DNA from: an uncultured delta proteobacterium
GTDB taxonomy: Bacteria; Myxococcota; UBA727; VGSZ01
Length of the DNA: 64,000 nt
Direction: 5' to 3'
Assembly (NCBI GenBank): GCA_963775425.1
Contig: CAVZJB010000008.1
Span: 266,749 to 330,748 of the forward strand
Below, one piece after another: positions 12,399 to 51,017 of this stretch (positions are counted from its first letter, which is position 1; every line of letters starts with the position of its first letter). The notes below the pieces were generated by a model. It had not been told where the DNA came from and did not search any database. It was given only the letters and a program-made list of their open reading frames with translations. A program made the translations under genes and the position numbers.

Positions 12399-12496
12399 GG
12401 GGCGCCCCGGGGCGTTCGATGCCGTAGCGATGTACGCCGGGACACTCGATCCCGGTCACTGACGCCGGCTTCGGTTCTTCGGTACGGTGCGGGCCG

Positions 12497-13996
12497 GTGC
12501 TCTTCAACTCCTACGCGTTCCTGTTCGGCTTCCTGCCGATCGCCGTGGTCGCGTTCTTCACCCTCGGGCGCCTGCGCGCCGGGCGGGTGGCACTGCCGGC
12601 GCTCGTGCTGGCGTCGCTGGCGTTCTACGCGTACTGGGACTGGCGCAACCTCTTCATCCTCGCGCCGTCGCTGCTCGTCAACTTCGCCGTCGGCCGCTGG
12701 CTGACGCGCACGCACCTGCAGGGCGGCAAGGACGCCGACCCCGCCGTCGGCGGTCGCAAGATCGTCCTCGTCTGCGGGCTCATCTTCAACCTCGCGCTGC
12801 TCGGGTGCTTCAAGTACCTCGACTTCACCATCAACACCGTCGACTTCATCGGCGGACCTTTCGGGCTGCGCATCCCGCTGCAGCACCTGGTGTTGCCGCT
12901 CGGCATCTCGTTTTTCTCGTTCGAGCAGATCGCCTACGTCGTCGACGCCTACCGTGGCCAACCCCGCCAGTACGGCTTCGTCGAGTACTGCGTGTTCGTC
13001 ACGTTCTTCCCGCACCTCATCGCGGGGCCGATCATCCAGCACAACGAGCTGATGGATCAGCTCAAGCCGTCGCTGTCCAAGCCGCGCGCGGAGAACGTCG
13101 CGCTCGGCATCTTCATCCTCGTCGTCGGCCTCTTCAAGAAGGTGGTCATCGCCGACTGGTGCATGCGCGTGGTGCCGGGCGTCTATGACCACGGGCCGCA
13201 GGCGATGACGGCGGTAGAGGCGTGGATCGGCACCATCGGCTACTCGCTGCAGCTCTACTTCGACTTCTCCGGATACAGCGACATGGCCATCGGCCTCGCG
13301 CGCATCTTCAACATCAAGCTCCCGCAGAACTTCAACTCGCCCTACAAGGCGCACAACCCCATCGAGTTCTGGCGTCGCTGGCACATGACGCTCTCGCGCT
13401 TCCTGCGGACCTATCTCTACATCCCGCTCGGCGGCAACCGCGGCACCCAGACGCGCCGCTACGTGAACCTCATGCTCACCATGCTCCTCGGCGGGCTCTG
13501 GCACGGCGCGGGGTGGGGCTTCGTCATCTGGGGCGGCCTCAACGGCGTGTACCTCGTCGCCAACAACCTGTTTCGCAAGTGGCGCAAGGCGCCCAAGGGC
13601 AACAACCCCGAGGGGCCGTGGTGGGTGATCGAGATCTCGGCCGCCGCCACGTTCTTCTTCATCATGCTGTCGCGCGTGTTCTTCCGTTCGCCGACGTTCA
13701 CCACGGCGGGCTCGGTGTTCCTCGACCTCTTCGGCATGCACGGCGTCGGCCTCGATCAGCTCGCCGCCAACGCCGCCGTCCTCTTCGCCTTCGCCGCCCT
13801 CTACGTCTTCTGCCGCCACGCGCCCAACACGCAGCAGGTGCTCACCGAGCTCGAGCCCGTCTACGGCAAGGTGGAGCGGCCGTCGCGCATGCAGCTCAAG
13901 CTCAACCATTGGGTGGCCGTGGGCGTCGCCGGCATGGCCCTCGTGTCGATCATGAAGCTCACGCAGGTGAGCGAGTTCCTCTACTTTCAGTTCTGA
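12497..13996 (+). CDS. MBOAT-family membrane-bound O-acyltransferase (AlgI/DltB/PatA-like)
   Basis: GTG start. MLFNSYAFLFGFLPIAVVAFF... Multi-TM protein with the conserved MBOAT histidine region (FWRRWHMTLSRFLRTYLYIPLGGNRG). Confidence 0.85.
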   Translation: MLFNSYAFLFGFLPIAVVAFFTLGRLRAGRVALPALVLASLAFYAYWDWRNLFILAPSLLVNFAVGRWLTRTHLQGGKDADPAVGGRKIVLVCGLIFNLALLGCFKYLDFTINTVDFIGGPFGLRIPLQHLVLPLGISFFSFEQIAYVVDAYRGQPRQYGFVEYCVFVTFFPHLIAGPIIQHNELMDQLKPSLSKPRAENVALGIFILVVGLFKKVVIADWCMRVVPGVYDHGPQAMTAVEAWIGTIGYSLQLYFDFSGYSDMAIGLARIFNIKLPQNFNSPYKAHNPIEFWRRWHMTLSRFLRTYLYIPLGGNRGTQTRRYVNLMLTMLLGGLWHGAGWGFVIWGGLNGVYLVANNLFRKWRKAPKGNNPEGPWWVIEISAAATFFFIMLSRVFFRSPTFTTAGSVFLDLFGMHGVGLDQLAANAAVLFAFAALYVFCRHAPNTQQVLTELEPVYGKVERPSRMQLKLNHWVAVGVAGMALVSIMKLTQVSEFLYFQF

Positions 13997-14420: not shown

Positions 14421-14524
14421 GTGACCCTCGGCGAAACGACGGGGTGCCTGACGGCGATGTCCCCGGGGAAGCAACGGTGCCCCGAACGCGTTGCGCTCGC
14501 CGCCGCCAGGAGTAGGTTTCGCCG

Positions 14525-14941
14525 ATGCTGAAGAGCCTGCTCGAGAAGTACGGCAACGACGTCGCCCTCTTGATGCTGCGCGTGGGGTTCGGCGGCTTCC
14601 TCGCCGTGAACCACGGCTGGACCAAGCTGATGACGTGGGGCCCCAAGCACCCCACGTTCGCCGATCCCCTCGGCGTGGGGCACCCGACGAGCATGGCGCT
14701 GGCCATCTTCGGCGAGCTCGTGTGCAGCATGCTCATCGTGCTCGGCCTGGGCACGCGGGTGGCGGCGGTGCCGGCGCTCATCACCATGCTGGTGGCCGCG
14801 CTCGGCGTGCACAAGGACTCGGTGTTCGGCGACGGCGAGCACGCGCTGTTGTACGGGGCGGCGTTCGTCGCGCTCATCCTCGCGGGCGGCGGAAGGTACT
14901 CGCTCGACCGCGTCGTCTCCGTGCGCTGGAAGGCCCCGTGA
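14525..14941 (+). CDS. DoxX-family membrane protein
   Basis: 138 aa with 4 TM helices: LLMLRVGFGGFLAVNHGWTKL... is DoxX-like. Confidence 0.8.
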   Translation: MLKSLLEKYGNDVALLMLRVGFGGFLAVNHGWTKLMTWGPKHPTFADPLGVGHPTSMALAIFGELVCSMLIVLGLGTRVAAVPALITMLVAALGVHKDSVFGDGEHALLYGAAFVALILAGGGRYSLDRVVSVRWKAP

Positions 14942-17094
14942 CACCCGGCCGCGGCGGCTCGCCCGGCACCCGCGTCGGCAGCCCCGTCGTCGTTGCCACC
15001 GCCGCCGCGCTCGCCCTCCTCGCCGCCGCCGCCTGCCACAAGTCCCCGCCGGCGCCGCCCCCGGCCCCCGCGGACGCCGACGACGCGTCGCCGTACATCG
15101 CCGACCTCGTCCACCAGGAGGATGCGCTGCGCGCGGCCACCGACTGGGCCGCGTTCCCGTCGAGCGATCGCACCCTCGGCGCCGACCCCGTCGACGTCGC
15201 CGCGCTCCCGGGCGGCGGCTTCGTGGGCGTCCTGCGCGGCGCCGACGCCCTGGTGCGCCTCGACGACGACGGCCGGGAGCTCGCGCGCGTGCCCGCCCCG
15301 CGCGCCCCCCGCGCCGTGGCCGTCGACGGCGACGCCGTCGCGGTGGTGGGCGAGCTCGACGGGCGCGTCCTGCTCGCGAGCGCCGCTGCCCTCGGCGCAC
15401 CGGCGGCCGCAGCCCGCGCGGGCGCGCCCCGCTTCGTGGCCGTTGCCGGCGTACGGGGCATGCGCGGCGTCGCCCTGGCGCGCGATCGTCATGGCGTGCG
15501 CCTGATCTACGTCGTCGACCTCGACGGCAACCTGCTGGTCCTCGACGGTGCGGGGCGCCGCGTGTGGCCGGGCGACGACAGGGCGGCGCCCGTGAACGTG
15601 GGACCGCGGGCGCTGTGGTTGAAGCGCGCCGGGGGCTTCCTCGTGTCGATGTCCGTGCTCGGCCACCAGCTCGTCGTCGTCCCCGTCGACGAGCGCGGCG
15701 TGCCCGACGGCGCGCGCGCGATGCGCGTGGACAACGACGGGCCCTTTTGGGGCTTCGACGCGCGTGTGGTCGGCGCCTCGCTGCTGGTCGCCGCGGGGCA
15801 CGTCGAGGACCACCCGCTCGATCGCAGCGGCGGCAGCTTCGGCTACATCGACTCGTTCGTGAGCGTGTACCGCTTTCCCGCTGCGGCGGGCGCGAAGGCG
15901 GAGCGCCTCGTGCGCCTCAACGCCTCGGCCGCCGGCGTGGTGGTCCCCAAGGCCCTGGCGTTCCTCGACGACGACACCGTCGTGGCCCTCGGCGCCGGCA
16001 GCGGGCGGGGCATGCGCTTCCAGATCGATGGTTCGACGGCTATCGAAGTCACTACCGATGACGGCGCGCGCGCCCGCGAGGCGCGCGCGACGACGGCCGT
16101 CGCGGCGCTGCCGGGCATCGTCGCCGTCGCGGTCGCCGGCGGTCGCGCGCTCGCCGCGGATCGGCTGCTCGATGCCTGGGTGGTCCTCCCCCTCGACGGC
16201 GGCGCCCCGCGCGCGGTGCCGGTGCCGGCGCCGCCGGGGGCGCCCGCGCGCTCGACCGCGTCGAAGCTCGGGGAGGCGCTGGCCTTCACCACGCTGATGG
16301 CCCCGCGGCAGAAGAGCGACGGGGAGCTGTCGCGCTTCACGTGCGAGACGTGTCACTTCGAGGGCGGCGGCGACGGCCGCGTGCACTCCACCGGCCGCGG
16401 CGACGTGAAGGCCAGCACGCGCTTCATCCAGGGGCTGTTCAACAACAAGCCGCTGTTCACGCGCGCCCTCGACGAGAACCTCTCCGAGATGGTGCACGCG
16501 GAGTTCCGCGTGGCCAACGCCAGGAGCGAGCTCGACCCGTGGTTCGCCGTCACGCCCGCCGACGCGCCGTGGCTGTCGCTCCTCGGGGTGCGCGGCAAGG
16601 TCGAGCCCGTCGAGCTCCGGCGCGCGCTCGTCTCGTTCTTCCACGACTTCACCCCGCGCGAAAACGCCGCCGTCGTCGGCCGCACGGCGTTCACCGCCGA
16701 GGAGCGCCGCGGCGCTGAGGTGTTCCGCGCCCGCTGCGCGTCGTGCCACACGCCCCGGCTCGTCGGCGACGACCCGCGCACCGCCCAGCCCTTCGATCGT
16801 TGGGAGCGCCTCATCCTCTCGGACAACGGCCCGCTCGTGTGGTCCGGCGACGGCCGCAAAAAGACCGGCATCGAGCCCTACGTGCACGAGGACGGCGCGC
16901 GGCCGTCGTCCCTGCGGCGGGTCTCGCGCAAGCTCCCGTACTTCACCAACGGCTCGTCCCGGGCCCTCGCCGACGTCGTCGCCCGCGCGCGCTTCTCGGG
17001 TTCAACGTTCATGCATTCATCGAAGCGAAGCGATCTCGCGGCGCTCCCGCCGGCAGATCAGCGGGCGCTCGTCGCGTTCCTCGAGCTGCTCTGA
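14938..17094 (+). CDS. Lipoprotein with large N-terminal domain and C-terminal di-haem cytochrome c peroxidase-like domain (two CxxCH)
   Basis: The GTG at 14938 overlaps the DoxX TGA (GTGA). Lipobox LALLAAAACHK. Haem motifs CETCH and CASCH in the last ~250 aa, in a CCP/MauG-like arrangement. The minus ORF 13987..16887 is a shadow. Confidence 0.7.
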   Translation: MTPGRGGSPGTRVGSPVVVATAAALALLAAAACHKSPPAPPPAPADADDASPYIADLVHQEDALRAATDWAAFPSSDRTLGADPVDVAALPGGGFVGVLRGADALVRLDDDGRELARVPAPRAPRAVAVDGDAVAVVGELDGRVLLASAAALGAPAAAARAGAPRFVAVAGVRGMRGVALARDRHGVRLIYVVDLDGNLLVLDGAGRRVWPGDDRAAPVNVGPRALWLKRAGGFLVSMSVLGHQLVVVPVDERGVPDGARAMRVDNDGPFWGFDARVVGASLLVAAGHVEDHPLDRSGGSFGYIDSFVSVYRFPAAAGAKAERLVRLNASAAGVVVPKALAFLDDDTVVALGAGSGRGMRFQIDGSTAIEVTTDDGARAREARATTAVAALPGIVAVAVAGGRALAADRLLDAWVVLPLDGGAPRAVPVPAPPGAPARSTASKLGEALAFTTLMAPRQKSDGELSRFTCETCHFEGGGDGRVHSTGRGDVKASTRFIQGLFNNKPLFTRALDENLSEMVHAEFRVANARSELDPWFAVTPADAPWLSLLGVRGKVEPVELRRALVSFFHDFTPRENAAVVGRTAFTAEERRGAEVFRARCASCHTPRLVGDDPRTAQPFDRWERLILSDNGPLVWSGDGRKKTGIEPYVHEDGARPSSLRRVSRKLPYFTNGSSRALADVVARARFSGSTFMHSSKRSDLAALPPADQRALVAFLELL

Positions 17095-17294: not shown

Positions 17295-17936
17295 GTGCGA
17301 CGAGCGCCGCGTGGCGGATCGTCGGGCGTGGACCCGTTCGACCTGGATACGTGGCCGCCGAAGGCGGTGAAGATCGCGGCCGCGGTGATGGGCGGCCTCG
17401 GGCTGTTGATGATGCTGTCGCTGCTCGCGGTTCCCCACATCGGCCCTGTGCCGGTGCTCGCTATCTTCGGGGCGCTCACCGCCGTCGTCACCATCGCGGA
17501 CATCGCGTGGGTCGCGCGTGCGTTGCGGCGGCGGCGCGCGCGGCGGCGGCTCGAGCGCGCCGGCGCCCCGTCGCTGCCGGCGCCGGCGCCGAGCGGCCGT
17601 TGCCTCCGTTGCGAGGCGCCGCTCGGCGACGCGCGCGGGTCGTACGACGCGCGCGCGTGCCCGAGCGGCCACGGCGCGCTCGTGTCACCGCCCGCCAGCG
17701 AGCGGCTCCTCGAGGCGCTGCCCGCCGTCGACCTCGACGAGGCGCGCGCGGCCGGCTCGCGCCGCACCCGCCGCCGGCGCCGCGAGCCGGCGTGCCCGGC
17801 GTGCGCCGGCGCGATGCGCGCAGTGCGGCTGCGCGGCGCCGGCGCGCGCGACGTCGACGTCGAGCTCTGCGGCGCGTGCGGCGCCATCTGGCTCGACGCG
17901 GGAGAGCTCGACGCGCTCCTGCCGGGGAGCTCGTAG
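17295..17936 (+). CDS. Membrane protein with two TFIIB-type zinc-ribbon motifs
   Basis: TM helices (IAAAVMGGLGLLMMLSLLAV..., VLAIFGALTAVVTIADIAWV). Zinc ribbons CLRCEAPLG...CPSGHG and CPACAGAMRAVRL...CGACGAIWLDAGELDALL (zf-TFIIB-like). The start is uncertain because the N-terminus is Arg-rich. Confidence 0.5.
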   Translation: MRRAPRGGSSGVDPFDLDTWPPKAVKIAAAVMGGLGLLMMLSLLAVPHIGPVPVLAIFGALTAVVTIADIAWVARALRRRRARRRLERAGAPSLPAPAPSGRCLRCEAPLGDARGSYDARACPSGHGALVSPPASERLLEALPAVDLDEARAAGSRRTRRRRREPACPACAGAMRAVRLRGAGARDVDVELCGACGAIWLDAGELDALLPGSS

Positions 17937-17988: not shown

Positions 17989-18447
17989 TCAGCGTCGCCG
18001 GGGATGTCGGAGCGAAGCGGCGCTCAGCCACGAGCGGAGCGGGCGAGCGTCGTCGGCGCCGAGGGCGGCGAGCCGGCGCGGGAGCGCGCGCAGCGCGCGG
18101 GTGGGGGGCGGCGCGGGGCCCGTCGCGCGCTCGCAGTAGAAGGTGCGGCAGCCGAGCGGGCGCGCGGCGTACACGAGGCAGCGGCCCTCGGGCGACAAAA
18201 ACGGGCAGCGCTCGTCGTCGTCGTCGGGGACGCGCGGCAGCCGGCGTCCCGTGCGCTTCACTTCGTCGACGACGAGCTCCCACTCCACGGGCGTGAGCCA
18301 GGGCTCGCGCCCGGTGACGGCGAAGCGGCAGCAGTCCGTCGACGCGTCGCAGGACCAACCGTCGAGGGCGTCGTCGGCCTCGCGCAGGATGGCGAGGGCC
18401 GCGCGCCTGCGCGCGCCGGCCGCGCCCATCGACGCGCGCGGCTTCAT
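17989..18447 (-). CDS. YkgJ/UPF0153-family Cys-cluster (putative Zn/Fe-chelating) protein
   Basis: CDASTDCCRF...CPFLSPEGRCLVYAARPLGCRTFYC matches the CxxCxxCC family. Confidence 0.65.
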   Translation of the reverse strand: MKPRASMGAAGARRRAALAILREADDALDGWSCDASTDCCRFAVTGREPWLTPVEWELVVDEVKRTGRRLPRVPDDDDERCPFLSPEGRCLVYAARPLGCRTFYCERATGPAPPPTRALRALPRRLAALGADDARPLRSWLSAASLRHPRRR

Positions 18448-18463
18448 CGGCGCGTCCGGCGCG

Positions 18464-18977
18464 TCACGGAGGGCAGCTGCACTGGCACGTGCACTGCGAC
18501 ATCTGTCCGGGCGGCGTGCCCGCGGGGCACTGACAGGTGCAATTGCACGTCTTCATCCCCGGCGCGGGCGCGGCGGCGGGCACGGGCGCGGGCGCGGCGG
18601 CGACGGGCGCGGCGGCGACGGGCGCGGGCGCGGCGGCGACGGGAGCCGCGGCCGCGGGAGCGGCGCCGGCGCCGACCATGATCGGCGTGATGTAGGCGAG
18701 GAGCGAGTCGTAGTCGGCCGCGGGGACGTTGTGGCGTCCGCCCACCGAGGACTTCTTCAAGGGGCCGGGCGGCGTTTTTCCCGCCAGCGCCGGGCCCGCG
18801 CCCTGGCCGCCGCCGGGGTGGCAGACGTTGCACTTCGCTTGAAAGTAGGCGGCGCCTTTCGCCGGATTCGGGAGGCCCACCGCGGCCACGGCCCGTCGCG
18901 CACGCGTCGGCGACGACGACAGCGACGCAGGCACACAAAAGGACCGAGAGGACGGCAGCGACGGAGCGAGGGGACAC
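18464..18977 (-). CDS. Class I c-type cytochrome (CNVCH) with Ala/Pro linker and metallothionein-like C-terminal Cys cluster; apparent frameshift after the signal peptide
   Basis: The frame starting at 18977 encodes the signal peptide MSPRSVAAVLSVLLCACVAVVVADA. Around 18885-18905 the haem-binding domain (AVAAVGLPNPAKGAAYFQAKCNVCHPGGGQGAGPALAG...) continues in a different frame. The C-terminus is (AAAPVAAAPAPV)n followed by CNCTCQCPAGTPPGQMSQCTCQCSCPP. This is either a sequencing indel or a pseudogene. Confidence 0.5.
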
Positions 18978-19063
18978 GGAGGGACCTCCAAGGTGTGGCG
19001 GGCGGACGACCCCGTCCGCCGAAACCGACGCTACCGCGTCGGGCGGGGTACAGTCCCGTCGTC

Positions 19064-23312
<4,249 letters not shown>

Positions 23313-23317
<5 letters not shown>

Positions 23318-23378
23318 AGAGTTGAACCGCAAAACAAATGGGTCGGCCAAGCACTCGGCGCGAAGCGCCGCCCGCACC
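23313..23378 (+). repeat. Copy A of an imperfect 66-bp element (inverted partner at 31672-31737)
   Basis: ctagagagtTgaaccgcaaaACcaaatgggtcggccaagcactcggcgcgAagCgccgcccgcac begins at the kinase stop codon. It contains the hairpin cggcgc-GAA-gcgccg. Confidence 0.8.
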
Positions 23379-23439
23379 CGGCAAAGGGGGCTTGTCCGCG
23401 CTGTGCTCCCTGGCCATGGTCCGGCCGAAAGGACCGACG

Positions 23440-24426
23440 ATGACCGACACGCAAGATCCCGCCCCCTCGACGGGCGCCGCCGGCAAAGGCGCGCTCGACT
23501 TCGCCGGCGTGCTCGAGGCCATCAAGCCGCACGCCGTCCGCCGCCTGGCCGTCGCCGTCGGCCAGGACGACGCCGTGCTCGACGCCGTGGCGCGCGCGCG
23601 CCGCGAAAACGTCGCCGAGGCCGTGCTCGTCGGTGACGAGGGCCTCATCAAGGAAGTGGCCGCGCGCGTCGGCGCCGACCTCACGGGCATCGAGATCGAG
23701 CACGAGCCCGATCAGGTGAACGCCGCCCTGCGCGCCGTGGAGCTCGTGAGCAGCGGCGCCTGTCACATCGTCATGAAGGGCAAGATTCATACGGACGACT
23801 TCCTGCGCGCCGTCCTCGACAAGGAGGTCGGCCTGCGCGGAAAGCGCCTCCTCTCGCACTGCTTCATCCTCGAGGTGGAGCGGCCGCACCGGCACCTCTT
23901 GTTCGTCACCGACGGCGCCATGAACATCGCGCCCAACTTCGAGCAGAAGGCGCAGATCGCCACCAACGCCATCGCGCTCGCGCGCCTGTTCGGCATCGAT
24001 CAGCCCAAGGTGGCGGCGCTCGCCGGCGTGGAGCTCGTGAACCCCAAGATGCCCGCCACGCAGGACGCGGCGGTGCTCGCCCTCATGAGCTACCGCGGCC
24101 AGTTCGAGGCCGGCATCGTCGAGGGGCCGCTGGCGCTCGACCTCGCCGTGTCCGAGGAGGCTGCGCGCGTGAAGGGGGTGAACAACCCCGTGGCAGGCAA
24201 GGCGGACATCCTGCTCGTGCCCTCCCTCGAGTGCGGCAACATCCTCGTCAAGACGTTCTCGCACCTCGCCGGCGGCCGCACCGCGGGTCTGGTGCTCGGC
24301 GCGCGGGCGCCCGTGGTATTGACGTCGCGCGCGGACTCCGCGGAGTCGAAGTTCCTCTCCATCGCCTGCGCCGTGTACGCCGCCAACATGGCGGCCGTGC
24401 GTGTGAAGGTCGGCAAGGTGAAGTAG
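23440..24426 (+). CDS. pta: Phosphate acetyl/butyryltransferase (short-form Pta/Ptb)
   Basis: MTDTQDP...AVGQDDAVLDAVARA...LLSHCFILEVERPHRHLLFVTDGAMNIAPN...LVPSLECGNILVKT is the Pta/Ptb fold. Placed immediately upstream of ackA. Confidence 0.8.
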   Translation: MTDTQDPAPSTGAAGKGALDFAGVLEAIKPHAVRRLAVAVGQDDAVLDAVARARRENVAEAVLVGDEGLIKEVAARVGADLTGIEIEHEPDQVNAALRAVELVSSGACHIVMKGKIHTDDFLRAVLDKEVGLRGKRLLSHCFILEVERPHRHLLFVTDGAMNIAPNFEQKAQIATNAIALARLFGIDQPKVAALAGVELVNPKMPATQDAAVLALMSYRGQFEAGIVEGPLALDLAVSEEAARVKGVNNPVAGKADILLVPSLECGNILVKTFSHLAGGRTAGLVLGARAPVVLTSRADSAESKFLSIACAVYAANMAAVRVKVGKVK

Positions 24427-24441
24427 CTCTTCGGGGGCGAG

Positions 24442-25626
24442 ATGGTCGTCAGGAGAAACGTCGTCGTCGTGAACTGCGGCTCATCGAGCGTGAAGCTCGA
24501 CGTGTTCGTGCTGCCCAGCGAGGACAACCCGCTCTCGGTGCAGGTGGACCGCGTCGGCACGCCGGGCTCCGCGCTGCGGGTGAACCGCACCGAAGACCAG
24601 AGCGAGTCGCGCCCCGTGGAGGCCCCGGACACGGCGGCCGCCGTGGGCCTCGTCCTCGACGTGGTGGCCGCCGCCGGCTTCTCCGTCGACGTCGTCGGCC
24701 ACCGCGTGGTGCATGGCGGCGAGCGCTTCTCCGACAGCGTCGTCGTCGACGAAGACGTGCTCGCCGCCATCAAGCGCTGTGTGCCGCTGGCGCCGCTGCA
24801 CAACCCCGCCAACCTCGCCGGCATCCACGTGGCGCGCGCGCGGCTGCCTAGCGTGCCGCACGTGGCCGTCTTCGACACCGCGTTTCACCAGACGCTGGCG
24901 CCGGACGCCTACCTGTATGCGCTGCCGCGGGCGCTCCATGACGATGACGGCGTGCGCCGCTACGGCTTCCACGGCACCTCGCACCGCTACGTCGCGGAGC
25001 GCGCCGCCGCCTTCTTCGGTCGCGCGCTCACCACCCTTCGGCTGGTCACGCTTCACCTCGGCAACGGCTGCTCCGCGGCGGCCATCGACGGCGGAAAGAG
25101 CGTGGACACGTCCATGGGCATGACGCCGCTCGAGGGGCTGGTGATGGGGACGCGCAGCGGCGACGTCGACGCCGCCGTGGTGCTCCGCATCGCCCGCGAC
25201 CAGGGCATCGACGCCGCGGAGACCACGCTCAACAAGCAGAGCGGCTTGCTCGGGGTGTCCAGGCGGAGCAACGACATGCGCGATCTGGAGAAGGCCGCGG
25301 CCGAGGGCGACGCCGACGCCGACCTCGCCATCCGCGTCTTCAGCCGCCGCGCCAAGAAGTACGTGGGCGCGTTCGCCGCCGTGCTCGGCGGCGTCGACGG
25401 CGTCGTCTTCACCGGCGGGATCGGCGAGAACTCGGCGCGCGTGCGCCGCGAGATCTGCGACGGCCTCGGCGTCATCGGCGCGCTCCTCGACGACCGGAAG
25501 AACGAGCGCAGCGAGCGCGGCGAGCGTGATCTCGCCTCCATGGACTCGCGCGTGCGCATCCTCGTCATTCCCACCGACGAAGAGCGGGCCATCGCCCGCG
25601 ACGCCCTCCGCCTCGCGGGCTTGTGA
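24442..25626 (+). CDS. ackA: Acetate kinase
   Basis: VVVNCGSSSVKLDVF, VGHRVVHGG, GFHGTSHRY and FTGGIGENS are canonical acetate/propionate kinase motifs. Confidence 0.9.
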   Translation: MVVRRNVVVVNCGSSSVKLDVFVLPSEDNPLSVQVDRVGTPGSALRVNRTEDQSESRPVEAPDTAAAVGLVLDVVAAAGFSVDVVGHRVVHGGERFSDSVVVDEDVLAAIKRCVPLAPLHNPANLAGIHVARARLPSVPHVAVFDTAFHQTLAPDAYLYALPRALHDDDGVRRYGFHGTSHRYVAERAAAFFGRALTTLRLVTLHLGNGCSAAAIDGGKSVDTSMGMTPLEGLVMGTRSGDVDAAVVLRIARDQGIDAAETTLNKQSGLLGVSRRSNDMRDLEKAAAEGDADADLAIRVFSRRAKKYVGAFAAVLGGVDGVVFTGGIGENSARVRREICDGLGVIGALLDDRKNERSERGERDLASMDSRVRILVIPTDEERAIARDALRLAGL

Positions 25627-33155: not shown

Positions 33156-35949
33156 ATGCCGATATCGCTGCGCTCTTCCGCGGCTGTCTGCCTCGCGCTC
33201 GCCGCCGCCGCTTCGCCTTCGTGCAACTGCGGAGACGACGCTCTCGTCAAGCTGGTGGTGCTCGGCGCCGTACAGCCGAGCCTCGACTTCGGCCAGCGTT
33301 TCGTCGGGTCGTCGACGCAGGCGACGGTGACCGTCGGCAGCCAGGGGACGGCGCCGCTCGACCTCAGCGACGCATCGGTGGCGGGCGGCGGCTTCACCAT
33401 CGTCGGCGCGGCGCCGATCGGGGACATTGCGCCCGGCGACAGCGCAGAGGTCGTCGTCGAGCTCGAATCCGACCGTGGCGGGCCCCGCTTCCGGCTCGCT
33501 CACCATCACCACCAACGCGAGCAACGGACCCGTCTTCACCGTCGCTCTTACCGGCGAGGGGCTCGCGCCGCTCGAGTGCCCGCCCGACGAGGCGTGCAAG
33601 CAGCTCACGTTCGATCCGGACACGGGCACCTGCGTGATCGAGATCCGCACGGGCGCGTGCGACGACGGATCCGTGTGCACGACCCAAGATCACTGCGACC
33701 AGGGCTCATGCGTCGGCGAGGCCGTCCAGTGCCCCACGGAGGGGGAGTGCGGGCGCGGGGTGTGCGACGCGCAGCTCGGCTGCCTGGCCATCCCCGACGC
33801 CGACCTCTGCGACGACGGGCAGCCCTGCACCGTCGAGAGCTGCGACGCCGACCTCGGGTGCACGCACCTCACGCTCGCTGACGGCGCGCCCTGCGGCCAC
33901 TTCGACACGTGCCACGTCGGCACGTGCAGCGCGGGCTCGTGCATCGTCAGCACCCTGCCAGACGGCGCGGCTTGCGACGACGGGCTCCTGTGCACCGCCG
34001 ACGACCAGTGCCGTTCCGGCGCCTGCGGCGGCGTCCGCGGCGAGACCACGCCGGTGCCCGCGGCGGTGTCGAGCGCGTTCGGCTTCGGCGAGGCGTTCAT
34101 GATGCCCGACATCGAAGGTGCACCCGACGACGTCGCGTTCCTCTTCACGGAGTCGCACCTGGTGCGCGCGCAGGGCGGAGCGCTCGCTCTCGTCGACACG
34201 GCGCCCGGCCCGCCGAGCGCCGCCGACAGCGTGCAGGTCGTCGCCACGTCGTTCGGCGCCGTCGGCGCGGCCTTCGGCTCGCCGCTTCACGTCACCACCT
34301 ACGGCGTCTCCGGCGCGACGTTCACCCCGCTCGGCGGCCTGGACCTGGCATCCGAGCTGAACGGCGTCCTCCTCGCCGCCGCCGGCGACCGCGCGTTCGC
34401 CGCCGGCGCCGACATCACCGCCATCGACATCACGAACCCGGCGGCGCCGCACGTCACCGACGCCGTACCGGAGGCGGGCGTCGGCCTCGCCCTCCTCGCC
34501 GTGGGAGACCGCCTCTTCTACGGGCGCTTGGACGGCTTCACGATCTTCGACACCAGCGCCGGGACGCTCGACGTGCTCTCCGACGACAGCGGCGGCGCGG
34601 CGATCGGCCTGGCGCTCTCGGACGCCGGGGTCCTCGCGCTCCGCTCCGACACGCCAAACCGCGTCGTCGCCGATCGTGTCGACGTGCTCGACCCGGTGAC
34701 CGGCGCCGTGACGTCGACGCTCGACGTCGCCGGCCGCAACGTCGCGGCCGTCGCGAGCCACGGGACCCGCGCGGCGCTGATGGGCGACAACGTCGAGCTC
34801 GTCGCGCTGCCTTCCGGGACCGTGCTCGCCAGCGCGCCGCTCTTTCCCGACTACGTTCACGGACAGCCGGCGATGTCGTCGACGCTGCTGTTGGCGAACA
34901 TCGACGGGTTGCCCGGGGCCCGTGCCTTCGACGTGTCGGGTGATGCCCTCGTGCCGCTTACGGCTCCGGGCTACGGCGCGCTCGGGCGCCTCACGCGGGC
35001 GGCGCCCGGCCTCGTCCTCGCCGCCAGTGCGTTGTCGGCCAGGCTCATCGACGCCACGGATCCTGCCGGCCCGGCGTTCATCGGCGGCGGCAACCTGCCG
35101 TTTCGGGCGTCGCTCTTCCGGCTCGCCGGCGGCGACCTCGTCACGGCCCCGCCCGGCCTCGGCGACGCCTCCGGATCCTTCGGGCCGCTCACCATCGTCG
35201 ACCTCACCGACGTCGACGCGCCGGTGCTCGAGTCGGCGCGTTCGCTCGCTGCTGCGCTCGACGGCCGGTTCCTGTTTGCGGCCGGCGGCATCGTCGTGTC
35301 GATCTCCGCCCGGCAGCCGGGGTTCGCGTGCGACATCGACTGCTCCATCCCGGGCGGCCGCGTGGTCGCCGAGGCGTTCGACGTCTCGACGTCGCCGCCG
35401 TTCCCCTATCCGCGGCTCGGCGGCGCCACGCTCGCGGTGGACGGCGTCATCGCGTTCTCCGATCTCACCACCGCGTTCGATCCCGCCACGCGTCGCATCG
35501 CGGCGGAGCTCGTCGCCGACAGCGACACCATCATCGTCGTCGACGCCGGCGACCCTACGGCGCCGCGCATCTATCCGCCGTTGGCGGAGCCCGGCTCGTT
35601 CGTCGGGTCGAGGCTCGCTCTCCACGGCGATCGTCTCTACATCCTCACCGCGGCCGGTGTGGTCGTGGAGGACATCGGCGCCGACCTGACGGAGCTCGCC
35701 GACGCGAGCTGGGCGAGCCTCGGCCTCCCCACCGACATCGCCTTCCCCCTCGCCGTCGACGACGAGACGCTGGTGGTCGGCTTCGACGGCCACATCGGCT
35801 TCCTCTCGGTGGCGACGCTGCCGCCGCGGTTGATAGGCGATGTCGCCGTCCCGATCGCGCCGGTGCGGGCGACCGCCGACGGCGATCGCCTCGTCGTCAG
35901 CGACCTCGCCCAGATCATGACGCTGACACCCGCCTGTCCACCGCCCTAG
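33156..35949 (+). CDS. Lipoprotein with choice-of-anchor-D-like Ig domain, Cys-rich repeats and LVIVD-like beta-propeller repeats; frameshift near 33470
   Basis: Frame A (33156-): MPISLRSSAAVCLALAAAASPSCNCG...LDFGQRFVGSSTQATVTVGSQGTAPLDLSDASVAGGGFTIVGAAPIGDIAPGDSAEVVVELESDRGGP. Frame B then continues the same domain (..SGSLTITTNASNGPVFTVALTGEG). Repeated Cx(n)GxC modules and LVIVD-like repeats follow to 35949. The indel lies in ggcgggccccgcttccgg. Confidence 0.6.
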
Positions 35950-41829: not shown

Positions 41830-44800
41830 CTATGGGATCAGCAACCGGACGGCGTTCGAGCCGTCGCCGGTCCAATAGATGTCGCCGTTGCCGTCGAGGG
41901 CGACGCCCTCCGGCGCGTTCAACAGGCCCGTGCCCGGCGCCGTGAGCGAGCTGAAGCCCGCGGTGTTGAGCGTGCCGACCAGCGTGCGCACCGTCCCGCT
42001 CGTCCCGAGCCCCGCCGCGCCCTGGCCGGCGACGACCGCGGCCACGCCGGGCAGCGCGCGCAGCCGGTGGTTCGACACCTCGGTGAAGAACAGCGTGTCG
42101 GCGACGGCGTCGTACGCGAGCCCGCCGATGTTGTTCACCGTCATGCCGTTGCCGTTGACGCCGTCGCCGGTGGAGCCGTTGTTGGCGCCCGCGATGTAGG
42201 TGAGCGTGCCGTCGGTCTCCAGGCGCAGGAGCGCCGAGGTGTTGAGCGCGTTGTTCGGCACCGGGCAGGCGCCGCCGTTCGAGATATTCGCCGAGAAGTA
42301 CATGCGGTCCTGCGCGTCCCACGCGAGCCCCGTGTTGGAGATGGAGCTGACCACCAGGCCCGACGCCGCCGTGCAGTTTTGACTGCCGAGCACCGCGCTG
42401 GTGGTGTTGAACGGCGACACGGGATCGATGCGGCGGATGTCGTTGAAGCCGTTGTCGACGACGTAGAGGAAGCCGTCCGGGCCGATGCTGAGCTCGCGGA
42501 TGTCGTTCAAGCTCACGCCCGAGCCCGCGCCGCCGTCGCCGTGTCCGGGGGTGTCCGCGGCGCCGCCGGCGATGGTGGTGATGATGCCGTCGCTGATGTT
42601 GACCCGGCGGACGCGGTCGCGGTCGACGGAGCCGCCGGCGTCCGCGATGTAGACGTTGCCGGCGGCGTCGAGCGCGATGCCCCGCGGCGACTCCAGTTGC
42701 GCCTGCGTCGCCAGCACGTTGTCGAGGAAGCCTGAGGTGCCCGTGCCCGCGAACACCGAGAGGTGTCCCTCCGGGCTGATGGACACCACGCGGTGGTTGC
42801 TGCTGTCCGACACGAACAGCGTGCCGTCCGCCGCGAGCGCCACGCCCGAGACGCTCAAGCTCAGGCGCGCTTGCGTGGCCGCGATCTCGCCAAAGCCGCT
42901 GAGCGGCGGCACCGCCCCCGCGGTGCCCTGGCTGTTGGCGATGGCGACGGTGCTGCCCGAGGGCGGGCGCTGCGCCGTCAACGTAAACAGCGGGGGCTGT
43001 CCGGTGCCGTCGATGATGTCGACGGGATCAAGCCACGTGCGCGCGAGCGCCTGGAACCGGTGCGGCGTGGTCACGCTGCGGCCGAGGCGCACCGTGCTGC
43101 TGGCCTCGCCGGCGAGCGTGGTGGCCAGGACGCCTTGTGTGACGCTGTCGCCGAGGTCGAGCGCCGTGAAGAACACGGGCAGCCCCACCACCGGCGTGGA
43201 GCCGCCGTCGATGACGCGCACGCGCAGCGGCAGCGCGGCGAGCTGACCCATGGTGGCGATCTGCGCATCTCCGTCGACGATGGCGATGGTGGCCGTGGCG
43301 GGCGTCTGCTGACCGATGCCGCGGATCATGCGCACGCGCTCGTTGCCGCCGTCGACGACGTAGAGGTTGTCGTCGGCGTCGAACGCGAGGCCGGTGGGGG
43401 CGTTCACGCGGGTCGCGGTGCTGTTGACGTTGTCGGCGGTGAAGCCGGCGACGCCGTCGCCCGCGACGGTGGTCATCACGCCGAGGACGTCCACCTTGCG
43501 GATGCGGTGCCCCGTGCCTTCGGCGAAGTACAGGTTGCCGGCGGCGTCCACGGCGATGCCGCCGACGCGGTGCACGCGGATGCCCAGGGCCGCGCCGGAG
43601 GCCGCCTCGGTGTTGCCGCCCGCGAGCGCGGTCTGCGTGACCCCGTCGCTCTCGAGCCGGAACACGTAGTCCGCGTTGGGGTCGGGCACCGGGCAGCCGC
43701 CGGCGTTGCCGATGCTGCCGCTGTAATAGAGGCGGCCCTCCTTGTCGAAGGCGAGCGACGCCTGCGGAAACGACGTGGCCGCCACGCCCGTCACCGACGA
43801 GCAGGCCTGGCCGACCACCACGCTGTCGATGACGCCGGGCAAAGCCGGCGTGGTGACCTGTACGCGGCGGATGCGCTGGTGCGCTTCGTCGACGATGAAC
43901 ACGTTGCCGGTGATCCCCGGGACGTCGCTGCCGTCGGCCGCGGTGGGGCCGACCGCGACGCTGGATGGTGCGTCGAGGTTCGCGCCGGTGGCGACCACGC
44001 CGTCGGCGGGCTGCGGGTTGTTGAGCGCGCTCCCCGCGAAGACAGTGAGGTTGCCGTCGCTCGTCAGCACACGCACGACGTCGTTGTTGGTGTCCGCGAT
44101 GTAGAGGTTCTTGTCCGCGTCGAGCGCGAGGCCGTGCGGGCCGTTGAGCGCGACGGAGAGCGCGGGCCCGTTGCCGCCGTTGCCGGCCGCGCCGGTGCCG
44201 GCGACGGCGAGCACGGCCCCGTTCGGGTCCACGCGCAGCACGCGGTTGTTGGAGGCGTCGCTGTAGAACACCGTGCCGTCGTCGGGGTCGACGGCGATGC
44301 CGTCGAACGAGGTGGTGAGGTTGGCGAGGGAGCGGGCCGCCGACGAGCTCAGCGTGCTGCCGGGGACGCCGGTCTGGTTCACGATGCTCGCGATGATGCC
44401 GGTGGCGATGTCCGTGGCCGTCTCGGTGAGCACGATGGGGGTGCCGAGCGGCAGGCCGTCGAGCCCGGTGGACGTGAGGGTGAACGTCGCCGCGCCCGGC
44501 GTCCGCGGCAGGAAGGCCACGAAGGAAAAGACGCCGTTGCCGTCGGTGAACCCCGACGACGGCTCCGCCGCCGCCCCGGCCGGCGTCGTCACCTGTACGA
44601 AGACGCCGGAGATGGGCGTGCCGTCGGTGTCCTTCACCGTGACGCCGAGCGGCGAGGCGAGCGCCTGGTTGATGGTCGCCGACTGGCCGCCGCCGAAGGG
44701 CGTGGCGACCACCACGGGCGGCGTGGTCTCCGCCACGGCGCGCACGACGCGCACGTCGTCGAGGCCGGCGTCGGTGATGATGAGGTCGCCCGCCGGCGAG

Positions 44801-47800
44801 AACGCAAGGAAGGACGGCACCGCGAACAGCGCGCCCGACGCGGGGCCGCCGTCGCCGGTGGTGGTCGACGTCGCCACCGTGCCCGCCGTGCCCGCCAACG
44901 TCGAGATCACGCCGGTGGCCGACACCTTGCGCACGCGCTCCGACGTGCCGCGCTCGGCGACGTACGCGTTGCCCGCCGGGTCCATGGCCAGGCCGGAGGG
45001 CGTGTCGAGGCGCGCGCCGCGCGCGGCGCCCGTGGTGACGATGGTGCTCCCGCCGGCGAGCGCCGTAAGCGTGCCGTCCGCCTCCAGGCGAAACAGGACG
45101 TCCGCGGAGCTCGGCAGCGCGCAGCCGCCGCCGTTGAGGATCTGTCCGAGGAACACGAGCCGATCCTGCGGATCGAGCGTGAGCTCGGTGTCGGCGAGCC
45201 CGCCCGCGCGGAGGTTGCCGGTGGTGCACAGCGCGACGGTGATCGCCGTGCTGATGAAGCCGCCGGTGTTGATCTTCTTGATGGCGTCCGGGGACCCGTT
45301 GTCGAGGACGAACGCGTCACCGGTCTGCGCGAACACCAGCGACGTGGGGCCCGAGAGCTGCGCGGTGGTGGCGAGGACGTTTTCGTTTGTCGACGTGCCG
45401 CCGCCGGCGAACGTGGTGACGAGGCCGGTCTGCGCATCGAGCTCGCGCACGCGGTTGTTGTTGGTGTCCGCGATGTAGAGGTTCTCGTTCGCGTCGAGCG
45501 CCAGCCCGTGGGGGCGGCTGAAGCGCGCTTGTGGGCCGGCGACGTTGTCGACGAACGCCGCCTGTCCCGCGTCGCTGCCGGCGGCGAGGAAGAGCTCTCC
45601 GTCGGGCGCGATGCGCACGACGCGGTTGTTCGCGGAGTCGGCGACGAAGATGGACCCGTCCGACGGGCGAACCACGACGCCGGAGGCCCCCTCCAGGCTC
45701 AGGGACGCCTTGGACGCGGCGCTCGGCGCGGCGTTGCCCTGGCCGTCGAGGAGCTGCGTGCGGCCCTGCTGCGCGGGGGCGTTCGCCAGCGTGCCGGCGA
45801 AGCCCGTGGGGAGATCCGTCGCCGTGGCCGCGATGCTCAAGGGCGCGCCGGCGAGCAGCGCTCCGTCGGGCCCGGTGCCGGTGACGGTGAACGTCTGCGC
45901 GCCGAGCGCGCGCGACACCGTGCCGAGCGAAGACGCGTTGCCGTTGGCGTCGGTGAGCACCACCGCCGGTGACACGACGCCGCCAGGCGGCGCCGTGAGC
46001 ACGATCTGCAGACCGACGAGCGGCGCGCCCGCCGTGTCCTGCGCGTGGACCACGAACGCCTGCGCGAGGTCCGCCGAGAAGCGCGCCGACTGACCGCCGC
46101 CCGCGCCGAGCGAGAGCGAAAACGGCGCCTCGCACTGCCCGCCGCAGTCCTTGGGACACGTGGTGCACGCCTCGCCGGAGTCGCACGTGCCGTTGCCGCA
46201 CGTGGCGACGCAGTCGGCCGGGCACGACGACGAGTCCTCGAGCGGGTCGCAGCGGTTGTTGCCGCAGGTGGAGCACAGGTCGCTCGACAGACGGCACGTC
46301 AACGGGTCGCACGAGATCTGCCCGGCGTTGAAGCCGAGGTCGCCGCAGGTGGCGCCGGCGAAGTTGTTGCCGTCGCACTCCTCGTCGCCTTCGATGATGC
46401 CGTTGCCGCAGATGGAGCAACTGTTGGCGTTCACCTGGCACTGCGAGTTGCACGCGAGGGTGCCGACGGAGCCGGCGACGAAGTCGGCGCAGGTGGCGCC
46501 GCCGAAGTTGGTGCCGTCGCACTCCTCGAAGTCGGCGGTGTCGATGATGCCGTCGCCGCAGTTGCTGCACTGCGTGGTGCGCGCGTGGCAGTTGGAGTCG
46601 CACGTGAGCGTGCCGCCGAAGAACCCGAAGCTGGTGCACGACAGGCCCGAGGCGAAGACGCCGCCGACGTCGCAGTCCTCGCCGGCGTCGAGGACGCCGT
46701 TGCCGCACTGGCCCGCGACCGTGAAGGGCGCGGCGCCGCCGGCGCCGTCGGGCACGGACACCGTGAGCTCCTGCGCCTGCCCGCCCGTGTCCGTGAACGC
46801 GTAGACGAGCGCGACGCGCCAGACGCCCTGCGGGAGGCGGCCGCCGCTGTCGACGCGCACCAGGCTGTCGGTGGCGATGCTCGGAGCGATCTCGACGGTC
46901 AGCTCGTCGTCGTCGCGCACGAAGCGGGCGGTGGTGATGCGCGCGTGGTTGAGGCTCGAGCCCTGCAAGAGCACGGTGAAATTGGCTCCGTCGACGGGCG
47001 GCGACAGCGCCTGCTGCGACAGGAGCGTGGGCGCGATGGCGGCGAACGTCGGCGACAGCGCCGTGCCCGTGGAGAAGTCCGCCGTGATGAAGAAGTCGCC
47101 GCGCTCGGGGAGCGCGTCGTCGACGCGCACGTTCAGCGCCGTGGCCGACGCCGACACCAGCGTCGCGGCGTACTCCGCGCCCGCGCCGTCGTTCAGGTGC
47201 ACGTGCCCGCCGTCGATGGCCACGAGGTTCTGGCCGGCCACCGTGACGACGTCACCGGGCACGAGCGCGCCCACCACGTCCGGCGACACGCTGGTGAACA
47301 CAGGCGCGAGCGCGTCCTCGTAGACGAGCGCCGAGGCGTCGGTCTGCCCGTCGGGGTTGGCCACCCGCAGGATGGCCGCGCCCGGCGCGCGCAGCGGCGG
47401 CACGAAGGTGAAGGACGTGCCCGTGAGGTTGGTGATGGGCAGCGGGTCCGTGTCGAGGAACGCGAGCATGCCGGTCTGAAAGCCCGAGCCCGTCACCGTG
47501 ACGGTGACGTTGAGCGCGTCGACGCGCACGCTGGCCGGGTTGAGCGCCAGGACGCGCGGCGGCGCCGCGGCGGGCGCGAACACGTCGACGGCGAGGGTGC
47601 CGCTCTGCTGCCCGTCGGTGTTGCGCACCGTGATGTCGGCGCTGCCCTCCGCGAGGCCGCCGGGCGCGGTGGCGATGATGCGCGAGTCGTTCACGAACGT
47701 CACGGCCGGCGCCGCCAGGGACGTCGCCCCCTGCGCGAACACGGCGGTGACGCCGGGGCGGAAGCCGGAGCCGTCGAGGAACACGCGGGTGCCGCCCAGC

Positions 47801-50061: not shown

Positions 50062-51017
50062 GGCGCACCTCCGACGATGATCTTGGCGGGCGTGGAGAGA
50101 TACTCGTACGTGCCGACGGCGGCGACCGTGCCGCCGACGACGACGACGCCGGCGAGCGCGCTGCCCCACACGTACCAGCGGGCGTACCAGGGCTGCAGGC
50201 TGGCCTCGTCGACGAGGTCCACCTGCACCACCTGGGTCTCGTCGGCGTTCACCGCCACGTCCTTGCCGAAGGGGACGTACCCCGGCTTGCGCACCTCGAT
50301 GCGGTGCGGGCCGATGGCGAGGTCGTGCACCGGCTTCACCGGCGCCTGGCCGAGCTCCTTGTCGTCGATGACGACGCTGGCGCCGGCGGGCGAGAGGATC
50401 TCCACGCTGCCCGCGAGCGCCGCGGCCTTCTTGCCGAGCACGAGCCGGTCCACCGCGGAGCGCGCGAGGTCGACCATGTCGTCGACGGCGCTCTTCCACG
50501 TGTACGCCACGCGCTGGAGGATCACCGGTGTGTCGGTGGTGTCGACGAGCGTGAGCGAGAACACCGCGGCGCCGCCTTCGGCCATCTCAACGGAGCCGAA
50601 CACCACGCGCTTGGCCTGCGCGAGCTTGCCGATGTCCGCGGTGCACGCGGCCTCGTCGCAGCCGAGCAGCCGCTGGTCGGCCTGGTGCGCGAGCAGTGTC
50701 TTGAGCTCGTTGCGCGAGACGGCGCGCCACCCCGGCCGCGCCCCGATCTCCGTCGTCACCAGCGTGGTCAACGCCCTGGCGATGCCCTCGGTGCCCTTGC
50801 CCGCGCGCAGGTCGAGCACGGCGACGGTGAGCACGTCGTCGGGCAGTTGCACGGCGGGCGCGGGCGCGGCCTGCTGCGGCTGCTGCGGCTGCGGCGGCGC
50901 GGCGGGCGTCGACGGGGCGTCGGCCGGCGTCGCTGCCGCGGGCGCGGCGGCGGGAGGCGTGTCGGGAGCGGGCGGCGTGGCGACCGCGAGGGCCGCGGCG
51001 ATGGCGAGGGCGTGCAT
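50058..51017 (-). CDS. PEGA-domain secreted/membrane protein
   Basis: Signal peptide, Pro/Ala/Gln-rich linker, a PEGA-like domain (LSPAGASVVIDDKELGQAPVKPVHDLAIGPHRIEVRKPGYVPFGKDV) and a C-terminal TM helix. Confidence 0.75.
   Translation of the reverse strand: MHALAIAAALAVATPPAPDTPPAAAPAAATPADAPSTPAAPPQPQQPQQAAPAPAVQLPDDVLTVAVLDLRAGKGTEGIARALTTLVTTEIGARPGWRAVSRNELKTLLAHQADQRLLGCDEAACTADIGKLAQAKRVVFGSVEMAEGGAAVFSLTLVDTTDTPVILQRVAYTWKSAVDDMVDLARSAVDRLVLGKKAAALAGSVEILSPAGASVVIDDKELGQAPVKPVHDLAIGPHRIEVRKPGYVPFGKDVAVNADETQVVQVDLVDEASLQPWYARWYVWGSALAGVVVVGGTVAAVGTYEYLSTPAKIIVGGAP

Follow-up and report, generated by a model that had tools for sequence, protein, structure and literature searches.

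In this study, we analysed a window of 64,000 nucleotides from an uncultured delta proteobacterium (contig CAVZJB010000008.1; G+C ~75%) and examined a two-gene locus on its minus strand. The first gene encodes a probably exported mini-cytochrome c with an eight-cysteine C-terminal tail, and the second, directly behind it, encodes a Cys-rich protein of the PF03692 (YkgJ) type, here called the partner. In the window as assembled, the signal peptide and the cytochrome are out of frame. The explanation that best covers the observations as a whole, and which we hold with somewhat better than even confidence, is that the two genes form an intact operon, that the cytochrome is membrane-tethered and carries a cystine-ladder knob, and that the frameshift is artefactual. 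Homologous loci and proteins are referred to by L and P numbers, respectively.

Reading of the cytochrome gene and its homologues

In the six-frame reading of the window, frame A starts with the GTG at 18977-18975 and reads MSPRSVAAVLSVLLCACVAVVVADA and then CATGRGRGGPP. Frame B, which ends at the stop 18466-18464, reads NPAKGAAYFQAKCNVCHPGGG, then a repeat with a period of 36 nt, and then CNCTCQCPAGTPPGQMSQCTCQCSCPP; its haem-domain stretch is NPAKGAAYFQAKCNVCHPGGGQGAGPALAGK, with GGRHNVP further on and ITPIM at the end. The first-pass annotation of this DNA had described a Sec signal in one frame and a mono-haem cytochrome, a linker and a Cys tail in another, and all of these parts are present in the sequence. 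Because GGAGG is found 7 nt ahead of the GTG, its placement supports 18977 as the true start. Frame A is open as far as 18444, and no stop or known stall signal was seen near the frameshift site.

When both frames, provisionally joined, served as the query against 5.8 billion protein clusters, 14 proteins matched, and a second query with a linker-trimmed alignment added a few more members, giving ~16 tail-bearing sequences in total. In all full-length members, the signal, an invariant Cys, the cytochrome, the linker and the tail lie in a single open reading frame (ORF). The earlier proposal that signal, cytochrome and Cys tail are one protein was therefore borne out by the orthologue alignment, and the fusion of a CxxCH domain to a CxC tail recurs in these ~16 homologues. 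The family haem motif in the alignment is A-D-P-A-R-G-x-K-Y-F-x-x-K-C-N-x-C-H-P, later followed by G-R-H-N-V-P, and the tail consensus is C-N-C-T-C-Q-C-P-x-G-T-P-x-G-Q-x-x-x-C-T-C-x-C-x-C-P-P-G. The Ala/Pro linker between them is found in all homologues with variable length.

Counts of invariance rest on an alignment of 12 mono-haem sequences. In the tail, all eight Cys, along with three Pro and one Gly (including P151, P155 and G157), are invariant in 12/12 of these, so the conservation of the Cys tail that had been assumed was confirmed, and the eight-Cys pattern is also retained in the di-haem forms, in L009/P0018 and in P0019. The di-haem proteins P0010 and P0013, encoded at L006:1278-2135 and L007:1-843, have two haem domains with a second Ala/Pro linker between them and the same kind of tail, and they end in CQCSCMCPPNTPPAALPAACTCNCQCPR. 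Comparison of the 25 tail codons with three homologues gave 9-10 synonymous against 5 non-synonymous differences, and the tail is under purifying selection. The motif CxCxCxC occurs 23 times in 1.4 million six-frame residues of high-G+C DNA (the window plus 88 loci), and 20 of these occurrences are the paired tails of this family. The tail motif is not a product of chance, and the family is real and constrained.

Only one of the 185,579 GTDB species representatives contains a tail-bearing cytochrome (L009/P0018). A family-pattern search of the GTDB species representatives gave no match, and a scan of JGI metagenome contigs yielded no family member. In a word-index search with the tail-only alignment nothing scored, the candidates being swamped by Ala/Pro words; phmmer with the 31-aa tail against 1.84 billion representatives returned two unrelated repeat proteins only and missed the family itself, which makes it a weak negative. 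The named relatives are metagenome-assembled genomes (MAGs) of uncultured Myxococcota, labelled 'Deltaproteobacteria' or 'Myxococcales'. To judge from these searches, the family appears to be very rare, uncharacterised and derived from uncultured Myxococcota. No described family among the Pfam, NCBIfam and PDB profile matches covers the whole architecture, which agrees with the earlier remark that it is not a standard described module, and our search of the literature on CxCxCxC tails or YkgJ found nothing relevant.

The frameshift and its repair

Between the lipobox TGC and TAC, the conserved Tyr codon in K-Y-F, the window has 55 nt and L008 has 57 nt, which leaves one nt too many for an open frame. 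The surplus base was located in ...GGT GGG CCT CCC GAATCC GGC... (18864-18869). When one A is removed, the stretch becomes CCC GAT CCG GCG AAA GGC, that is P-D-P-A-K-G, which compares with the family consensus D-P-A-[RK]-G (ADPARG). The repaired stretch reads GGPPDPAKG, and the repaired ORF of 170 aa contains every family-invariant residue. After this removal the signal is in frame with the haem domain, as it is in the homologues. Frame plots of G+C at the third codon position did not place the junction, the N-terminal part being too short. The first-pass annotation had expected the frames to join near 18885-18905, at an indel in a GC-rich run or by recent pseudogenisation. The junction lies instead at 18864-18872, and the extra base is the A of GAATCC, outside any G+C run.

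The suggested pseudogenisation is not supported: a second gene is broken by the same extra A, which speaks rather for a consensus error of a systematic kind. When the whole window was scanned for frame signals, a single further clear frame switch outside gene boundaries came up, at ~33465. This site is 14.6 kb away in a lipoprotein gene (33156-35949), which is split at GAGCTC GAATCC GACC; minus one A, the junction is bridged by one PF22544 Ig-like domain (residues 42-133, E 1.4e-9). The gene is publicly annotated as its 3' 824 aa only (P0035). Its product is a lipoprotein with an N-terminal PF22544/ASH Ig-like domain and Cys-rich repeats. Two other candidates were rejected: a triple frame alternation in the gene 850-2148 is a Thr/Pro low-complexity effect, and a frame change at 14941-15049 is a gene boundary between a DoxX gene and a lipoprotein gene.

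GAATCC was observed 2 times on both strands of the 64 kb, against 17.4 +/- 3.7 expected, and both occurrences are frameshift sites. Both lie within a C-GA(A)TCC-G octamer, CGAAUCCG, in the codon context xxC-GAT-CCG of unrelated genes. As GATCC pentamers make up ~1% of the window, the chance that two independent random indels both land in one is ~1e-4. The window also contains 10 GAATC/GATTC sites and 277 GATC sites, and the other eight GAATC/GATTC sites show no frame switch.

Further observations come from other assemblies. L001, a Logan contig assembled independently from run ERR11571143, corresponds to window positions 19522-17321 over 2202 bp without gaps and with one mismatch. This sole mismatch is the G of GA(A)TCC at 18869, where L001 has CCCCAATCC and the window CCCGAATCC. 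One end of L001 falls exactly ahead of an intact C-GATCC-G (17320-17316), and the other lies 24 nt from a GGATCG at 19551-19546. Because the mismatch and a contig end both fall at GATCC, the reads of ERR11571143 seem to disagree at the first bases of GATCC. L040:2599-3839, from the unrelated Polyangia MAG MFD09495.bin.2.10, carries a Memo-like gene with four breaks. In one of them, at 3162, GGAT(T)C has an extra base, the removal of which restores ...SRFDVRED...; the others are in a C5 run, in GTC(C)GTC and near AGAAG, so the locus looks indel-rich. Going by its isolate and contig names (MFD...bin, contig_11920), L040 looks like a long-read assembly. In nanopore assemblies, the consensus errors left after polishing are reported to cluster at methylation motifs (PMC6591954). 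Taken together, the data make it highly probable that the frameshift is a spurious A inside GATCC, arising as a systematic consensus or base-calling artefact. Since the frameshift is most likely of this origin, the cytochrome gene is most likely to be read as intact.

Haem domain and membrane anchor

The haem domain comprises ~60 residues with one CxxCH site, CNVCH at 18832-18818, whose two Cys and His do not vary among the aligned homologues. It passed PF00034 marginally (22.4 bits, cut-off 21.3) and stayed below the cut-off of PF13442 (23.7 bits, cut-off 27). Against PDB, the family profile matched the cytochrome domains of QcrC, CcoP and ActA with E ~3e-5, over the N-terminal half of the domain only. 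The closest tail-less relatives are lipoprotein-type c6/c551-like cytochromes with a G-M-P-A-F loop (P0025, P0026, P0029, P0030, P0034). In the alignment with these Met-ligated relatives, the canonical distal Met of the G-M-P loop is absent from the family: the Met column is Val or Ile (R-H-N-V-P), and an invariant His stands two residues earlier, at 18731-18733 in the window. The later Met of T-P-[IM]-M, a motif which ends at 18677, is missing in L009/P0018, P0019 and the di-haem forms. We infer that the invariant His probably serves as sixth ligand, so that ligation would be His/His. In P0019 (JGI 3300050046, a 3157-bp contig), CNGCQ replaces CxxCH, so that the proximal His is gone, and the eight-Cys tail and a downstream PF03692 gene are intact; this could be a sequencing error or a haem-less variant.

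All 12 aligned sequences share C26 directly after the hydrophobic core of the signal, with a Gly-rich stretch behind it, an arrangement like that of lipoproteins. Most family members fit a permissive lipobox (tested as [LVI][ASTVI][GAS]-C), and lipidation of the invariant Cys is probable for the family, as far as the alignment can tell. Downstream of the haem domain, Tandem Repeats Finder (TRF) delimited the Ala/Pro repeat at 18560-18676, with a period of 36 nt, 3.2 copies and 85% matches.

The eight-cysteine tail

The tail has 8 Cys in 27 residues, arranged in CxC motifs with small polar spacers and no aromatic residue; the conserved non-Cys residues are N, T and Q and the loop P-x-G-T-P-x-G-Q. 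AlphaFold2 (AF2) was run on the alignment of 12 sequences and gave a mean predicted local distance difference test (pLDDT) score of 67. The tail reached pLDDT ~80, with strands 142-146 and 160-164 symmetric about an 11-residue loop. In the predicted register, the Cys residues pair as 141-165, 143-163, 145-161 and 147-159, all on one face. Foldseek found no match of the AF2 model in PDB, and there was no metallothionein model among the Pfam/NCBIfam matches at E up to 1.

The first-pass annotation had called the tail metallothionein-like. This was right for its composition; homology to any metallothionein model was not found, and an ordered hairpin with conserved non-Cys residues is predicted. 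Because of the oxidising export compartment, the conserved N/T/Q residues and loop, and the geometry of the modelled hairpin, we favour a disulfide-stapled, ordered knob rather than a floppy metallothionein. Cross-strand disulfide hairpins are known, with three disulfides in theta-defensins and four in hepcidin (PMC13001179).

The PF03692 partner

The partner matched PF03692 with 29.0 bits (cut-off 23), residues 33-104 aligning to profile positions 2-70 of 85. It had been described earlier as a YkgJ protein with a CxxCxxCC motif, starting 17 bp after the cytochrome gene. The family assignment stands, but the literal motif does not: the window protein has C33-x5-C39-C40, the partners of the di-haem loci L006 and L007 have C-x10-CC, and the ORF begins 16 nt past the cytochrome stop. 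Seven Cys are invariant among five partner homologues, first in C-x5-CC and then in CPFL...C.VY..RPLGCRTF.C. The PDB sequence search with the partner profile gave no relative, and the single-sequence AF2 model (pLDDT 42) was unusable. The partner probably binds an Fe-S cluster, by analogy with FliB. It is reported that the PF03692-like Cys motif of FliB binds a [4Fe-4S] cluster sensitive to oxygen, that FliB modifies flagellin in the cytosol before secretion, and that its motif deviates too, being CX4CX3CC (PMC8598068).

No signal peptide was found in any partner homologue aligned. Because of this, the partner appears to be cytoplasmic and the pair not periplasmic. The earlier idea of a periplasmic metal-handling or redox pair is thus not upheld, as the partner lacks a signal peptide and is widespread without the cytochrome.

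The partner lies directly 3' of the cytochrome in 9/9 distinct tail-bearing loci with visible downstream DNA, namely the window, L002, L004, L008, L009, the contigs of P0011 and P0019, and the di-haem loci L006 and L007. The spacing ranges from overlap up to a few tens of nt. In L006 and L007, the partner overlaps the cytochrome stop, and the neighbours differ (Exo_endo_phos, Cupin_2). The only close tail-less relative, L089:145-459 (P0021), has a haem domain 68% identical to that of the window, a lipoprotein signal and a short Pro/Ala end without the Cys tail, and there is no partner nearby. The partner would be co-transcribed with the cytochrome, to which it may be linked in function.

In Polyangia (Sorangium, Minicystis, Byssovorax), the partner family was found at 80 loci, with the cytochrome upstream in L009 only. 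The neighbours at partner-only loci have no common theme (Memo, PilZ, Hsp70-like, methyltransferase, RelA-like). In a neighbour-joining tree, the tail-linked partners all fall in one clade, which also holds the cytochrome-less L010, L012, L014, L017, L013, L015 and L016. Because this single clade mixes tail-linked and cytochrome-less loci, the tree would fit an old cytochrome-partner association with repeated cytochrome loss.

Genomic neighbourhood

The positions of the features are collected in Table 1. The divergent kinase gene is followed by pta (PF01515) and ackA (PF00871), the three spanning 19064-25626 on the plus strand. An orthologous kinase (72-90% identity) is divergent in L002, L004, L008 and L009. 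It is also divergently upstream of the partner in the cytochrome-less L013, L015 and L016: in L015 and L016 the kinase (76% identity) is directly beside the partner, and in L013 ~1.3 kb lies between them. The kinase is probably a conserved neighbour with no functional tie. The order kinase-pta is also seen in L002 and L004.

Table 1. Positions of the operon and of associated features in the window.
Feature	Position	Strand	Basis or remark
Shine-Dalgarno GGAGG	18985-18989	minus	7-nt spacer to GTG start, read directly
Signal peptide MSPRSVAAVLSVLLCACVAVVVADA	18903-18977	minus	Frame A; aligns with homologue signal peptides
Family-invariant Cys (probable lipidation site)	18900-18902	minus	Directly after signal
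Gly-rich tether ATGRGRGGPP	18870-18899	minus	Frame A, after invariant Cys
Frameshift site GA(A)TCC	18864-18869	minus	One surplus A (18868 or 18867)
Mini class I cytochrome c domain	18677-18868	minus	Frame B; Pfam and PDB profile matches
Ala/Pro-rich spacer (AAAPVAAAPAPV)n, ~43 residues	18548-18676	minus	TRF and homologue alignment
Eight-Cys tail CNCTCQCP-AGTPPGQMSQ-CTCQCSCPP	18467-18547	minus	Sequence CNCTCQCPAGTPPGQMSQCTCQCSCPP; stop 18464-18466
PF03692 (YkgJ-type) Cys-rich protein, 152 aa	17989-18447	minus	Pfam; co-directional, no signal peptide
Ser/Thr kinase (Pkinase + AAA_16 + TPR), 1417 aa	19064-23317	plus	Pfam; divergent from cytochrome gene
Second GA(A)TCC frameshift	33465-33470	plus	Inside unrelated lipoprotein gene 33156-35949

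On the other side of the operon, the gene at 17295-17936 (plus strand) is convergent to the PF03692 gene and encodes a membrane protein with a C-terminal TFIIB-type zinc ribbon (PF13453); its position is taken by an amidase in L002 and L008. At ~14960-17094 (plus strand) is a gene for a large lipoprotein with two CxxCH and weak C-terminal MauG/MbnH/CCP-like matches, preceded by those for a DoxX membrane protein (14516-14941, plus strand) and an MBOAT acyltransferase (12431-13996, plus strand). This arrangement is not kept beside the cytochrome in other loci. Further away, a single open frame of ~8.7 kb at 41830-50586 (minus strand) has a coding-like signal throughout and probably encodes a giant protein. 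Around the operon, neither a sigma-70-type promoter nor an intrinsic terminator was found, and Rfam and tRNA scans of the window gave no matches.

Proposed function

Our best guess for the product of the first gene is a periplasmic electron carrier, tethered by a lipid and bearing a cystine-ladder knob. The 170-residue protein would be exported via its Sec signal peptide and anchored through the family-invariant Cys, most likely lipid-modified, with a short Gly-rich tether. The haem domain would be followed by an extended Ala/Pro spacer of ~43 residues and then by a C-terminal hairpin of facing CxCxCxCP strands. In the oxidising periplasm, the eight Cys would probably form a four-rung cystine ladder, and this ladder would make the tip of the flexible arm a rigid and conserved knob. 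The membrane-tethered carrier could then use the knob to dock to some other binding partner, or to exchange electrons or thiols with that binding partner.

Several points weigh against this picture. The AF2 model rests on 12 sequences and omits disulfides and metals, and disulfides and a metal-thiolate cluster are not told apart by the present data. At its lipobox the window protein has V-A-D-A-C, position -2 being Asp, and A-D-A|C would also suit cleavage by signal peptidase I; P0019 reads CxxCQ where the family has CxxCH. In the loci compared, no respiratory or metal-handling genes are conserved around the pair. With regard to the frameshift, 26 CGATCCG sites are intact in the window, and no longer shared context tells them apart from the two that are broken. 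These intact sites rule out that every CGATCCG is miscalled, and because of them any error must be context-dependent and not deterministic. Moreover, the extra base would be real if L001 derives from short reads.

Alternative explanations

Other explanations of the frameshift have to be weighed against an artefact. That the frameshift is a real, very recent 1-nt insertion, leaving a fresh pseudogene or a signal-less fragment, appears unlikely to us. The public annotation does treat the gene as truncated, since P0001, which represents the window locus, has 141 aa from an internal GTG at 18889 (18889-18464) and no signal. Both assemblies carry an extra base, and close relatives (L013, L015, L016) have lost the cytochrome while retaining kinase and partner, which implies that the gene is dispensable. 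However, the gene has no other defect, every invariant residue being intact once one base is removed; the identical insertion is present in the same octamer 14.6 kb away, with only two GAATCC in the window; and the assemblies disagree at exactly the base of the inserted site, L001 breaking at another GATCC. Programmed +1 ribosomal frameshifting at C-GAA-UCC-G, joining the signal to the cytochrome and with the same signal in the second gene, is extremely improbable. Both sites require a +1 shift and share the octamer, and in a genome with 75% G+C the codons GAA and AAU are rare. Nevertheless, the other full-length tail-bearing homologues are all in a single frame, the site has no stop or known stall signal, and the P-site codon CUC of the second site is unable to re-pair in the +1 frame. 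Frameshifting would also yield Asn where deletion of the A yields the consensus Asp, and an equivalent extra base occurs in the unrelated MAG of L040 amid plain indels. We therefore consider an artefactual extra A the preferred explanation.

With regard to the tail and the partner, it is possible, if rather doubtful, that the tail is a metal-thiolate site for Cu(I), Zn or Cd, and the protein a haem-linked periplasmic metal buffer or metal oxidoreductase. The Cys density of the tail, its CxC motifs, small polar spacers and lack of aromatic residues would suit such a site, and eight thiols on one face of the predicted hairpin could cradle a cluster. Against this, no Pfam/NCBIfam metallothionein model matches, the conserved non-Cys residues and loop and the predicted ordered hairpin are unlike typical metallothioneins, export by Sec leads into an oxidising compartment, and no metal transporter, chaperone or metal regulator is conserved nearby. 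Another proposal is that the tail, while still in the cytoplasm and not yet exported, is modified, loaded or held by the PF03692 protein, and that the pair is one functional unit. This would agree with the partner directly downstream in 9/9 loci, including the di-haem forms in a different neighbourhood, with the tail-less L089 without a nearby partner, with the single clade of tail-linked partners, and with the precedent of FliB, a [4Fe-4S] protein that modifies a secreted protein in the cytosol (PMC8598068). We nevertheless judge it improbable, as at least 70 partner homologues of Polyangia occur without such a cytochrome among varied neighbours, cytochrome-less loci are interleaved in the same partner clade, the partner of 152 residues has no recognisable catalytic domain, its match to FliB is insignificant (E 0.088), and the negative case (L089) is a single locus. 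Its extension, in which the hairpin would be a periplasmic redox or cofactor module made or loaded before Sec export by a PF03692 Fe-S protein, is quite improbable. If true, it would mean a haem-linked, modified or metal-loaded cysteine ladder on a swinging arm, and to our knowledge a two-compartment maturation system of this kind has not been described for any cytochrome. The disulfide-stapled knob on a tethered cytochrome remains our favoured reading.

If this reading is true, the protein has a rare architecture of anchor, mini-haem domain, Ala/Pro arm and eight-Cys hairpin, confined to uncultured Myxococcota, and its C-terminal module is previously undescribed among membrane-tethered cytochromes c. 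A small module with strict conservation, the tail can easily be synthesised, and its chemistry, whether disulfide ladder or metal-thiolate cluster, and its dependence on the PF03692 protein are directly testable. A modest impact is likely, because nothing in the pathway context connects the locus with a major process. If the frameshifts are artefacts, P0001 and P0035 are mis-annotated as truncated through one recurrent extra A in GATCC, and this pattern would be an annotation warning that can be screened for in similar assemblies.

Comparison with known systems

The cytochrome cy of R. capsulatus, the c552 of P. denitrificans and the c553 of Heliobacterium, the last being anchored by a fatty acid, are exported class I cytochromes c with an N-terminal anchor and a long linker, features that are also predicted for the window protein. 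Cytochrome cy consists of a 30-residue transmembrane helix, a 69-residue linker and a 100-residue domain (PMC7876108). In contrast to these carriers, the arm of the window protein follows the haem domain and bears the extra C-terminal Cys hairpin, the haem domain is shorter (~60 residues) with the canonical G-M-P Met replaced, and no bc1 or oxidase gene is linked to it in the window neighbourhood.

The predicted register of the tail resembles that of theta-defensins, protegrins and hepcidin, which have two antiparallel strands with alternating in-register Cys and 2-4 disulfides (PMC13001179). These are free cationic host-defence or hormone peptides of animals with tight turns, whereas the tail has no sequence homology to them and would be a neutral, C-terminal bacterial module with a conserved 11-residue loop. 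With the bacterial metallothioneins SmtA/BmtA, MymT and PmtA, the tail shares a high Cys density, CxC motifs and the lack of aromatic residues. It differs from them in being exported and not cytoplasmic, in its strictly periodic CxCxCxC, its conserved non-Cys residues and its predicted ordered hairpin, and in having no profile match.

For a +1 frameshift of the prfB type, conservation in orthologues, a slippery codon and a stall signal would be expected; the other full-length tail-bearing homologues read in one frame, no stop or stall signal lies at the site in the window gene, and CUC at the second site cannot re-pair. Concerning the partner, we know of no studied protein with a PF03692-like motif other than FliB. 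As a protein of the PF03692/YkgJ/FliB type, the window partner has an N-terminal Cys cluster ending in CC, together with the CPFL...C.VY..RP.GC motif; compared with FliB, it has only 152 residues and is without the large C-terminal part.

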